Below are positions 22,011 through 22,611 of a stretch of DNA of 26,759 nt, piece by piece (position 1 is the first letter of the stretch; each line of letters begins with the position of its first letter). The notes under the pieces were generated by a model, which had not been told where the DNA came from, searched no databases, and worked only from the letters and a program-made list of their open reading frames with translations. Where the stretch lies: positions 1 through 26,759 of IMG/VR virus record IMGVR_UViG_2531839665_000020; one strand, written 5' to 3'. A program made the translations under genes and the position numbers. The stretch is from a virus. Taxonomy: Duplodnaviria; Heunggongvirae; Uroviricota; Caudoviricetes.

Positions 22011-22068
22011 TTTCTGGTGACATTTGGCGGTATCAGTTTTACTCCGTGACTGCTCTGCCGCCCTTTTT
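22011..22068 (+). ncRNA. dicF: DicF small regulatory RNA
   Basis: TTTCTGGTGACATTTGGCGGTATCAGTTTTACTCCGTGACTGCTCTGCCGCCCTTTTT agrees with the DicF sequence as I recall it (one mismatch in the 5' region), ending in a GC stem plus U-tract, directly upstream of dicB. Confidence 0.8.
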
Positions 22069-22237
22069 AAAGTGAATTTTGTGATGCGGTGAATGCGGCT
22101 AAGCGCACGCGGAACAGTTAAAACCAAAAACAGTGTTATGGGTGGATTCTCTGTATCCGGCGTTAATTGTTAACTGGTTAACGTCACCTGGAGGCACCAG
22201 GCACTGCATCACAAAATTCATTGTTGAGGACGCGATA

Positions 22238-22426
22238 ATGGAAACGTTATTACCAAACGTTAATACGTCTGAAGGTTGTTTTGATATTGGAGTTCTGCTC
22301 AGTAACCGGGAGTTTACTGAAGATGCCATTAAGATGAGAAAATATGAACCTTATCTTCTTAATGATAATTCCATACTTTCCAGAATTGCCCTTCTTGAAC
22401 TTGGTATTATCGGAGAACAGCAGTGA
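22238..22426 (+). CDS. dicB: Cell-division inhibitor DicB
   Basis: 62 aa METLLPNVNTSEGCFDIGVLLSN...; ATG preceded by GAGGA; follows dicF as in Qin. Confidence 0.85.
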   Translation: METLLPNVNTSEGCFDIGVLLSNREFTEDAIKMRKYEPYLLNDNSILSRIALLELGIIGEQQ

Positions 22427-22611
22427 CTTCAGCGTTTGCACTGATAATGACCGTTTTTCTTATAACGGGTGAGCCGCAGAATGTGATTACCGGAATTTAT
22501 TACAGTAAGTCATCCTGCATTCAGGTAAGGGACGAACAAAAAATCCCCGGTGAATGCCTCCCGTTAAAAAAAGTATCGCTGTACCTGAATAACGAAACAC
22601 CGGCTGGATAA
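22423..22611 (+). CDS. ydfD: YdfD-like small membrane protein
   Basis: 62 aa, GTG start overlapping the dicB stop (GTGA); N-terminal hydrophobic segment MTSAFALIMTVFLITG; the symbol is assigned mainly by synteny with Qin. Confidence 0.6.
   Translation: MTSAFALIMTVFLITGEPQNVITGIYYSKSSCIQVRDEQKIPGECLPLKKVSLYLNNETPAG

Follow-up and report, generated by a model that had tools for sequence, protein, structure and literature searches.

We find that the dicF-dicB-ydfD cassette at positions 22011-22611 of the window (the whole 26.8-kb stretch of DNA that was analyzed) is an intact copy of a known prophage module that can stop E. coli cell division. We consider it about 85% probable that the cassette lies distally in the leftward early ('dicBF') operon of a defective lambdoid prophage of the Qin type and that it works as it does in K-12. 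The whole window is 100% identical to NZ_CP027388.1, from the Shiga-toxin E. coli strain 2011C-4251, in which its counterpart, a degraded prophage resembling Qin, occupies the Qin site and so lies, like Qin, between ydfJ and rspB. For the same DNA in this strain, RefSeq carries the labels 'dicB' and 'DUF1482 family protein'. The module is ordinary rather than new, since it is a common natural allele in about one-fifth of complete E. coli genomes: at least 80% of the 751-nt allele is present in 1018 of 5426 such genomes, and the allele is also found in PPompW and Stx2a-converting phages. Seven places in the 2011C-4251 genome match the module, so this particular copy may be redundant.

All three genes are intact, as the first-pass annotation had claimed, with Rfam, Pfam and NCBIfam scores above the curated cutoffs. 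The small RNA dicF (22011-22063, + strand, its ends set by the K-12 annotation of the 53-nt RNA) is covered by Rfam RF00039 at 22012-22063, model positions 1-52 of 52, with 77 bits (gathering score 48) and E=1.2e-15. The dicB gene (22238-22426, + strand, 62 aa) matches Pfam PF05358 with 129.5 bits (cutoff 27) and NCBIfam NF049927 with 111 bits (cutoff 100) over all 62 residues, the score of K-12 DicB being 132.8 bits, and the ydfD-like gene (22423-22611, + strand, 62 aa, GTG start, DUF1482) matches Pfam PF07358 with 51.1 bits (cutoff 25) and PHROG 1092 with 109.9 bits. These family matches refute the notion that the features are chance ORFs and a misannotated RNA rather than real genes, which we regard as scarcely credible: nothing but the small size of the ORFs favors it, against E-values of 1e-15 to 1e-40 versus curated RNA and protein models and conservation of the genes across thousands of genomes. 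Alignment with K-12, the check that had been proposed for the cassette, recovers the same genes, but DicB in its C-terminal half and YdfD throughout are of another allele class. DNA identity to K-12 is ~98% from ydfA through dicB codon 16 and decays beyond. On this alignment the three genes, though intact and true to their families, are not the K-12 allele.

In DicF, a terminator-like hairpin comes after a seed that is single-stranded and 5'; the RNA differs from K-12 DicF at one base, an A at 22022 (G12A in K-12 numbering). Divergence in the seed had been named as evidence that would count against the cassette. We find no difference from K-12 in the 3' part of DicF, used for pairing with ftsZ, pykA and manX, and the sole change lies in the 5' segment used for xylR; the predicted energy of the terminator hairpin equals that of K-12, at -15.9 kcal/mol. 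G12A places an A-C mismatch in the middle of the GGTGACGTTT/AAACGTCACC pairing between DicF and xylR, which leaves this DicF with an altered xylR-pairing 5' seed, and shifts the duplex energy from -33.7 (G12) to -27.9 kcal/mol (A12) in RNAduplex, a program that stretches the pairing unrealistically along the whole sRNA and that was used only for the energy difference of this single mismatch. The prediction is that A12 weakens only the xylR pairing. Membership in the DicF family is unaffected, because A12 is a common natural allele; in IMG/VR both alleles are common, with A in 73 contigs and G in at least 120. Of 5409 E. coli genomes, 5394 have an xylR site with an identity of at least 99%. The DicF copies of EHEC and their pairing with pchA are reportedly the subject of Melson & Kendall 2019. 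Immediately upstream of dicF is its precursor region (21786-22010, + strand), which by K-12 alignment and folding is conserved and highly structured, with a folding energy of -101.8 versus -102.4 kcal/mol in the comparison with K-12 and a short replaced hairpin at ~21917-21945. [quoted passage not shown]

The dicF-dicB spacer and dicB leader (22064-22237, + strand, 174 nt) differ from K-12 at 2 positions, and across 104 loci with the same spacer length the median identity to the window is 98.9%. A Shine-Dalgarno sequence, GAGGA, lies 7 nt upstream of the dicB ATG which, as in K-12, is an internal in-phase start within a longer ORF (22133-22426). The protein, a class II allele with the C-terminus RKYEPYLLNDNSILSRIALLELGIIGEQQ, is 61% identical to K-12 DicB. 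Truncations and point mutants of K-12 DicB place its critical determinant in the N-terminal 13-14 residues, and further show that K2A, K2G and K2R proteins keep activity, that the last 8 residues are dispensable and that deltaC12 to deltaC20 weaken activity (PMC4967827). Loss of required DicB residues was the other finding expected to tell against the cassette, and we find these residues retained: the N-terminus reads METLLPNVNTSEGCF as against MKTLLPNVNTSEGCF in K-12, residues 1-15 (L5 included) are the same except for K2E, E is the commonest residue at position 2 across the family, and all 20 family-invariant positions are kept. MinC binding, ZipA-dependent division inhibition and the MinC-dependent block of ManYZ are known specifically for K-12 (class I) DicB, and by analogy we expect that the class II protein may have the same MinC and ManYZ effects. 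A filamentation screen in UTI89 (PMC6206680) was considered as a test of class II and rejected, as UTI89 DicB is class I. A PDB sequence search with DicB returned no solved relative, and PADLOC models gave no match for DicB or YdfD. The AlphaFold2 monomer of DicB, built from a 23-sequence family alignment, is all-helical with a disordered N-terminus (pLDDT 68.8); given this low confidence, it was not used to address partner binding.

The ydfD-like gene is translationally coupled to dicB in the way the first-pass annotation described, its start overlapping the dicB TGA by 4 nt in the sequence (CAGTGACT, GTGA, where K-12 has ATGA), and its Shine-Dalgarno sequence GGAG lies within the 3' end of dicB. 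The 4-nt overlap is a rule of the family, occurring as ATGA in 114 loci and as GTGA in 16. The encoded protein is 45% identical to K-12 YdfD, with a hydrophobic N-terminus and with Cys32, Cys45 and an EQKIPG motif shared with K-12. IspG binding and lysis of dividing cells have been demonstrated specifically for K-12 YdfD, in which single-residue terminal deletions suffice to inactivate the protein; the class II protein may, by analogy, have the same lysis and IspG activity. A conserved hairpin shared with K-12 (22651-22664, + strand) follows ydfD as a terminator-like element or processing site. Next is an intact RecE-like exonuclease gene (22704-25121, + strand, 805 aa, Pfam Exonuc_VIII and Rv2179c-like), and downstream of this gene come xis and then int.

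Judged by sequence, this copy is a class II DicB C-terminus and YdfD joined to the A12 DicF allele, a structure that raises the question of whether K-12 phenotypes can be transferred to it. The class II DicB C-terminal helix and YdfD might have a shifted partner specificity, for example with changed effects on ZipA, MinC or ManYZ, or with lysis through a target that is not IspG. In keeping with this idea, the mosaic breakpoint falls inside dicB, strong divergence from K-12 is seen over residues 36-62 (pN 0.46, pS 0.76), YdfD has diverged to the extent given above, and truncations of 12-20 C-terminal residues weaken K-12 DicB; in addition, the class of the DicB C-terminus shows perfect linkage to that of YdfD across ~124 loci, while the dicF allele recombines freely. 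However, linkage of adjacent DNA needs no functional cause, and natural recombinants pair either DicB N-terminal patch with either C-terminus, which argues that the DicB halves are interchangeable. The C-terminal helix also keeps its pattern of hydrophobic and polar residues, with E37, L40, L41, I46, S48 and A51 invariant or nearly so in both classes, and YdfD keeps both cysteines and the EQKIPG motif. Finally, deletion of an O157:H7 dicB that is class II by its primers gives a VBNC phenotype, and DicA and DicC shifted both dicB mRNA and cell length in O157:H7, which fits a division inhibitor (PMC6915034). We thus think it unlikely that the allele has diverged in function. Pooled class II dN/dS values of 0.15 for dicB and 0.28 for ydfD indicate that the class II alleles are under purifying selection.

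The first-pass annotation had also placed the operon under DicA control. The part of this claim that stands is the presence of a DicA-type repressor upstream (19962-20369, + strand, 135 aa; NCBIfam NF007257, 236 bits, cutoff 101); the control itself is plausible, with a repressor that is 61% identical to K-12 DicA and diverged in its helix-turn-helix and with operator cores that differ from those of K-12. The repressor gene is divergent from that of a DicC/Cro-type regulator (19658-19885, - strand, 75 aa; NCBIfam NF007282, 168 bits, cutoff 130; Pfam P22_Cro), and the pair lies immediately upstream of ydfA. Three operator-like sites (19896-19909, 19922-19935 and 19947-19960) occupy the dicC-dicA intergenic region (19886-19961). 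Promoter prediction and motif search identify two more, TTAGGTTTTTCTAC (20442-20455) and TTAGGTTATTCTAA (20478-20491), in a segment (20442-20494, + strand) that contains a dicBp-like promoter (TTGACC-18-TAAATT, 20465-20494); the second of these sites falls between the -35 and the -10, and the -35 is positioned as in K-12 dicBp. Five of the six TTAGN6CTAA-like sites in the window thus sit within 277 nt flanking dicA, where ~0.075 would be expected (Poisson P ~2e-8). Only this clustering is informative, as the window as a whole shows no excess of sites over chance (7.2 expected, 6 found). The window also encodes a Rem homologue (14285-14548, - strand, 74% identity to K-12 Rem) that adjoins hokD/sok, as in Qin, and K-12 Rem is an antirepressor that relieves DicA repression (PMC10448788). 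In O157:H7, qPCR shows that dicB mRNA is lowered by overexpression of DicA and raised by DicC, with primers that fit a dicA of this type and a dicB of class II (PMC6915034). With the switch of the DicA/DicC type and its own set of operators, the promoter placed like dicBp and the Rem homologue, DicA control of the operon is plausible.

The proximal part of the operon is less well preserved. Its first gene, ydfA (20571-20726, + strand, DUF1391; Pfam PF07151, 93.7 bits), is intact. The next gene, ydfB (20728-20838, + strand), is cut to 36 aa by a TAG that replaces TCG of K-12, and ydfC (20886-21125, + strand) is frameshifted by A5 for A4 after codon 44, as reflected in a RefSeq flag of 'frameshifted' and a PHROG 1744 match limited to residues 1-44. 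Between ydfC and dicF, the operon is split by a ~590-bp insertion relative to K-12 (21196-21785, by alignment) with a Rip1-family gene on the - strand, convergent to the operon. This gene runs from a GTG at 21695-21693 to a stop at 21605-21603, with a leftover ORF at 21585-21241 and a probable extended -10, TGTATAAT, at 21737-21730. A 1-nt deletion (A4 at 21621-21618, A5 in intact copies) frameshifts it after residue 26 and leaves it without a continuous N-terminal pore-forming helix; at the same site, L096 and L107 have intact copies of 151 aa. The family profile matches PDB 9oox, Rip1 of phage HK446, with E=1.5e-17 over nearly the full length, and a homologue model (pLDDT 88.4) matches the same structure in Foldseek with E=2.3e-7 and TM 0.59/0.71. 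Based on the Rip1 match, we rejected 'predicted nuclease with TOPRIM domain', a JGI label carried by a homologue of the inserted gene. In PADLOC models, the repaired gene gave only a sub-threshold match (E=0.0054). Like HK446 Rip1, the inserted gene combines a long N-terminal helix with a CxxC...CxxC beta domain and is oriented against the early operon of a prophage, but the two are only ~24% identical. Members of the inserted-gene family lie beside the immunity region rather than between the terminase genes, the location reported for the Rip1 of a P. aeruginosa prophage (review PMC13434031).

Because of the insertion, its convergent promoter-bearing gene and the damage to ydfB and ydfC, dicF and dicB may be transcribed less efficiently than in K-12. 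In the extreme case, insertion and convergent transcription would have cut the three genes off from their promoter, leaving a silent, decaying remnant that contributes nothing in this strain and whose intactness reflects recent descent and small target size instead of function at the locus. The neighboring accessory genes are indeed all damaged (the ydfB stop and the frameshifts of ydfC and the Rip1-like gene), the annotated prophage has no structural genes and contains an IS3 and pseudogenes, the other matching places in the genome could make this copy redundant, and no independent dicF/dicB promoter was predicted on the + strand at 21586-22237. On the other hand, no strong intrinsic terminator is predicted on the + strand within the insertion, class II dN/dS is far below 1, and both the structure of the DicF precursor and the dicB leader are nearly invariant. 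Furthermore, the same insertion architecture is kept in 59 genomes and several IMG/VR contigs in which dicF, dicB and ydfD are intact, and the K-12 operon is likewise silent in most cells and functional once derepressed. On balance, we see a small chance that the module is a silent remnant.

We therefore favor a dicBF operon that works as in K-12; its molecular activities, and the continuity of its transcript across the insertion, we infer from work on K-12 (PMC5069750, PMC6832061, PMC10448788, PMC8835842) and O157. In the lysogen, the DicA-type repressor would occupy the TTAG-N6-CTAA-like operators flanking its own gene and keep the ydfA promoter off. Derepression, whether by the Rem-type antirepressor, from the DicC/Cro side of the switch or under stress, would then yield a polycistronic ydfA-ydfB-ydfC-(insertion)-dicF-dicB-ydfD RNA from which RNase III and RNase E would excise the 53-nt DicF. 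The 3' part of DicF would pair with the ftsZ ribosome-binding site, so that FtsZ synthesis would be blocked, and also with pykA and manX. DicB, made from the internal in-phase ATG, would bind MinC and bring it via ZipA to the septum, causing filamentation, and would block, in a MinC-dependent manner, ManYZ, through which lambda-like phages enter across the inner membrane. Coupled to DicB through GTGA, the YdfD-like protein would serve as a lysis factor that depends on division; in K-12, YdfD inhibits IspG.

Compared with the K-12 Qin (Kim) dicBF operon, the window shares the chromosomal site, the gene order, the promoter position, the dicB leader, DicF except for 1 nt, the internal DicB start, the 4-nt dicB/ydfD overlap and Rem beside hokD. 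It differs in DicA and the operator cores, in the C-terminal half of DicB, in YdfD and its GTG start, and in the truncated ydfB, the frameshifted ydfC and the insertion with its Rip1-like pseudogene. In K-12 Qin, the intact exonuclease gene has as its counterpart the IS2-disrupted ydfE pseudogene, and relBE, flxA and ydfV of Qin are absent here. Other copies, with the same class II DicB/YdfD and the same DicA type at 94-97% DNA identity over the full 751-nt query, are found in EHEC O157:H7 prophages (EDL933, Sakai) as well as PPompW and Stx2a-converting phages. They show small amino-acid differences at the DicB C-terminus (GIIGEQQ versus GIFGERQ), and in most of them dicF has no such insertion upstream. 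Lambda Kil and Rac KilR are analogous small division inhibitors, encoded in a leftward early PL-type operon under an immunity repressor. Their mechanism is different: Kil reaches FtsZ by way of ZipA, and DicB works via MinC. To our knowledge, Kil and KilR are unrelated to DicB in sequence and have neither an sRNA partner nor a coupled lysis gene. The outcome is analogous, in that derepression leads to a transient block of FtsZ-ring function (PMC3961180).

The finding has little import beyond annotation, as it is textbook prophage biology and RefSeq already has names for the exact proteins. The interval from ydfC to dicF serves lysogen-expressed genes as a landing site and is occupied here by a dead copy of Rip1, a recently described anti-phage defense protein. 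In addition, results from K-12 are routinely applied to pathogenic E. coli, in which the DicB C-terminus and YdfD are of the other class. It is doubtful, and at best a long shot, that the class II DicB helix and YdfD are co-adapted with a partner or phage specificity unlike that of K-12 and that A12 DicF drops xylR from its regulon. If this were true, E. coli lineages would carry distinct 'flavors' of dicBF that are shuffled by recombination inside dicB.

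The dicF-dicB-ydfD module of the window is intact, and we consider it very probable (roughly 85%) that this common alternative allele works by the known dicBF mechanism. All three genes lie on the plus strand where the first-pass annotation had placed them, as confirmed by Rfam, Pfam and NCBIfam matches and by the overlap of the last two genes. dicF gives a full-length Rfam match (22012-22063; 77 bits against a gathering score of 48), and by the K-12 annotation the RNA spans 53 nt (22011-22063). dicB (22238-22426; 62 aa) matches Pfam PF05358 with 129.5 bits and NCBIfam NF049927 with 111 bits (cutoff 100); as in K-12, its start is internal to and in phase with a longer ORF (22133-22426). 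The ydfD-like gene of the DUF1482/YdfD family (22423-22611; 62 aa; 51.1 bits, cutoff 25) begins with a GTG that overlaps the dicB stop codon as GTGA.

Aligned to the K-12 Qin operon, the window is about 98% identical in DNA over a stretch that begins shortly before ydfA and ends near dicB codon 16, past which identity falls and is low across the remainder of dicB and ydfD. K-12-type genomes match only the first 400 nt of a 751-nt module query, at least 80% of which is present in 1018 of 5426 complete E. coli genomes; PPompW and Stx2a-converting phages also carry the window allele. DicB shares 61% identity with its K-12 counterpart: K2E is the sole change in residues 1-15, and residues 36-62 form a second class of C-terminus (...RKYEPYLLNDNSILSRIALLELGIIGEQQ in the window versus ...RKQERELLNKICIVSMLARLRLMPKGCAQ in K-12) that retains the family-invariant R34, K35, E37, I46, S48 and A51. 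The ydfD-like protein, 45% identical to K-12 YdfD, shares with it a hydrophobic N-terminus, both cysteines and the EQKIPG motif. We refer to the K-12 and window versions as class I and class II. Among 194 dicF loci retrieved from IMG/VR for a survey, each DicB C-terminal class always occurs with its own YdfD class, the exact window DicB is found 13 times, and a 4-nt dicB/ydfD start/stop overlap is the rule (ATGA, n = 114; GTGA, n = 16). The mosaic breakpoint lies within dicB (window 22238-22426; fetched loci L007-L199), and natural recombinants also exchange a variable patch at DicB residues 16-26.

In K-12 DicB, the critical determinant lies within the N-terminal 13-14 residues; K2A, K2G and K2R variants are still active, L5 is important, the final 8 residues are not needed, and losing 12-20 C-terminal residues weakens activity (PMC4967827). 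The first-pass annotation had made its reading depend on such required residues, and the window DicB retains the N-terminus that is critical in K-12. Class II alleles are under purifying selection, with pooled pairwise dN/dS values within the class of 0.15 (dicB) and 0.28 (ydfD). That class II DicB and YdfD have a shifted specificity is, in our judgment, unlikely. The DicB of UTI89, the strain of a filamentation screen, is class I, and that screen is therefore no test of class II. The one study linked here to class II was done in O157:H7 EDL933, with primers that match class II dicB (…GIFGERQ*) and window-type dicA and dicC. There, dicB mRNA fell and cells became shorter on DicA overexpression, DicC had the opposite effect on both, and dicB deletion altered the formation of viable-but-non-culturable cells (PMC6915034).

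The window DicF differs from that of K-12 by one base, G12A (K-12 numbering; window position 22022). With DicF stretches assigned to targets as in PMC5069750, this base falls within the 5' stretch GGTGACGTTT, whose pairing partner is xylR codons 4-7, and the predicted DicF-xylR duplex is weaker by about 6 kcal/mol; the xylR target site shows almost no variation across E. coli. The 3' region that pairs with ftsZ, pykA and manX is identical to K-12. A12 DicF is predicted to pair more weakly with xylR specifically. The ftsZ/manX seed is kept, and the initial interpretation is refuted neither by the DicF seed nor by the required DicB residues. Both alleles are common in IMG/VR (A in 73 contigs, G in at least 120), and DicF G/A recombines freely with both DicB/YdfD classes, all four combinations being seen in the 194-locus survey. 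The dicF-dicB spacer (22064-22237; 174 nt) has only 2 differences from K-12 and a median 98.9% identity to the window among 104 loci of that length. Because this conservation exceeds that of the dicB and ydfD coding sequences, we suggest that the spacer is a constrained RNA element, either a processing site or a dicB leader structure.

Genes around the intact module are decaying, as judged from lesions in ydfB (20728-20838), which is six codons short at its 3' end (TAG versus TCG in K-12), and ydfC (20886-21125), in which an extra A shifts the reading frame (A5 versus A4 in K-12). In the window, about 590 bp (21196-21785) separate the ydfC hairpin from the DicF precursor, versus 27 bp in K-12. 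At least 80% of this insertion is found in only 59 of 5426 genomes, and dicF loci with the ydfC hairpin have short spacing in 91 cases and long spacing in 7, the window included. The locus could be a transcriptionally isolated remnant, a reading to which we give little credence. No strong plus-strand terminator is predicted within the insertion. Its gene has a probable promoter (extended -10 TGTATAAT, 21737-21730) directed against the dicBF transcript. Directly to the right of the insertion, the DicF precursor region (21786-22010) is conserved and is predicted to fold as stably as that of K-12. At 21917-21945 in this precursor, a hairpin CUGGGG...CUCCAG replaces the K-12 CGGGG...CCCCG.

The insertion gene lies on the minus strand, opposite to the operon, in two segments (21695-21603 and 21585-21241), the second annotated in RefSeq as a 114-aa hypothetical protein. 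Intact homologues have 151-170 aa. In the window copy, an A5 run is one A short (A4 at 21621-21618), leaving an N-terminal fragment from a GTG at 21695-21693 to a stop at 21605-21603; two IMG/VR contigs (L096 and L107) carry intact 151-aa copies at the same site that are otherwise identical. Intact copies in other enterobacterial prophages sit between a CI-type repressor and the leftward operon, facing both, the usual spot for a lysogen-expressed accessory gene ("moron"). The family profile matches Rip1 (ring interacting pore 1) of phage HK446 (PDB 9oox) over nearly its full length (E = 1.5e-17), and the sole significant Foldseek match to a homologue modelled confidently with AlphaFold (pLDDT 88.4) is likewise 9oox (E = 2.3e-7; TM 0.59/0.71). 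Rip1, a prophage defence protein, assembles around an infecting phage's small-terminase ring and makes a pore in the membrane with its N-terminal amphipathic helix (review PMC13434031). Given the frameshift and the Rip1 match, the sole dedicated superinfection-defence gene of the window operon is a pseudogene.

The DicA-type repressor expected upstream of the module is present (19962-20369), next to a Cro-like gene (19658-19885), and the two score as DicA and DicC. The window DicA has only 61% identity to that of K-12 and an altered helix-turn-helix, and the dicC-dicA (19886-19961) and dicA-ydfA (20370-20570) intergenic regions have diverged from K-12. These carry repeated operator-like sites (TTAGATTTTCCTAA, GTAGAGAAACCTAA and TTAGAATTCCCTAA in the first; TTAGGTTTTTCTAC and TTAGGTTATTCTAA in the second), such that 5 of the 6 in the window fall within these 277 nt, where about 0.075 are expected. 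TTAGGTTATTCTAA sits between a -35 TTGACC and a -10 TAAATT that align with the K-12 dicBp position. Compared with those of K-12, the sites share the outer TTAG...CTAA half-sites and diverge in the centre, implying that the window DicA would have an immunity specificity different from that of K-12 Qin. A Rem homologue (14285-14548, minus strand; 74% identity to K-12 Rem) adjoins hokD/sok (14766-14921 and 14919-15068, minus strand; full-length sok antitoxin RNA, Rfam 103.9 bits), as in Qin; the relBE that comes after hokD in K-12 is missing. K-12 Rem is an antirepressor that relieves DicA repression (PMC10448788). Based on the DicA/DicC homologues, the clustered sites, the promoter at the dicBp position and the Rem homologue, predicted DicA control of the module is well supported as architecture.

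E. coli strain 2011C-4251 (NZ_CP027388.1, 1216876-1243634; host record L002) contains the window sequence at 100% identity, and its genome matches the dicF-dicB-ydfD query in 7 places. The window covers a degraded lambdoid prophage flanked by ydfJ and rspB, the site of Qin in K-12. The structural genes of this prophage are gone, and the early region through exonuclease, xis and int is retained. Marks of decay include an IS3 element in place of the late region (L002 8785-9998; window ~5909-7122) and pseudogenes of nleG7 (L002 6185-6837; window ~3309-3961), a terB-like gene and a fimbrial gene; nleG7 and the paa adhesin gene (L002 18136-18894; window ~15260-16018) are virulence-associated cargo. 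An Rfam match to the sRNA STnc100 (10747-10913, minus strand; 102 bits) lies near the prophage's SASA-family esterase and holin region. An intact 805-aa RecE-like exonuclease (22704-25121, plus strand), with an Exonuc_VIII N-terminal region and an Rv2179c-like 3'-5' exonuclease domain, precedes xis and then int, whereas K-12 Qin has only an IS2-disrupted ydfE pseudogene there.

The module, the window allele and its annotation are already known. To these, our analysis, which establishes gene identities, coupling, allele structure, selection and regulatory architecture, makes small additions: a two-class DicB C-terminus linked to YdfD, the predicted A12 weakening at xylR, and the identification of the Rip1-like pseudogene. 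We propose that the DicA-type repressor would hold the ydfA promoter off and that derepression would yield a polycistronic RNA processed to DicF, which would repress ftsZ, pykA and manX. DicB, translated from the same RNA, would use MinC both to stop division and to prevent the ManYZ-dependent entry of phage DNA, and translational coupling would produce the ydfD-like lysis factor, these activities being those expected from K-12 (PMC5069750, PMC6832061, PMC8835842, PMC10448788).
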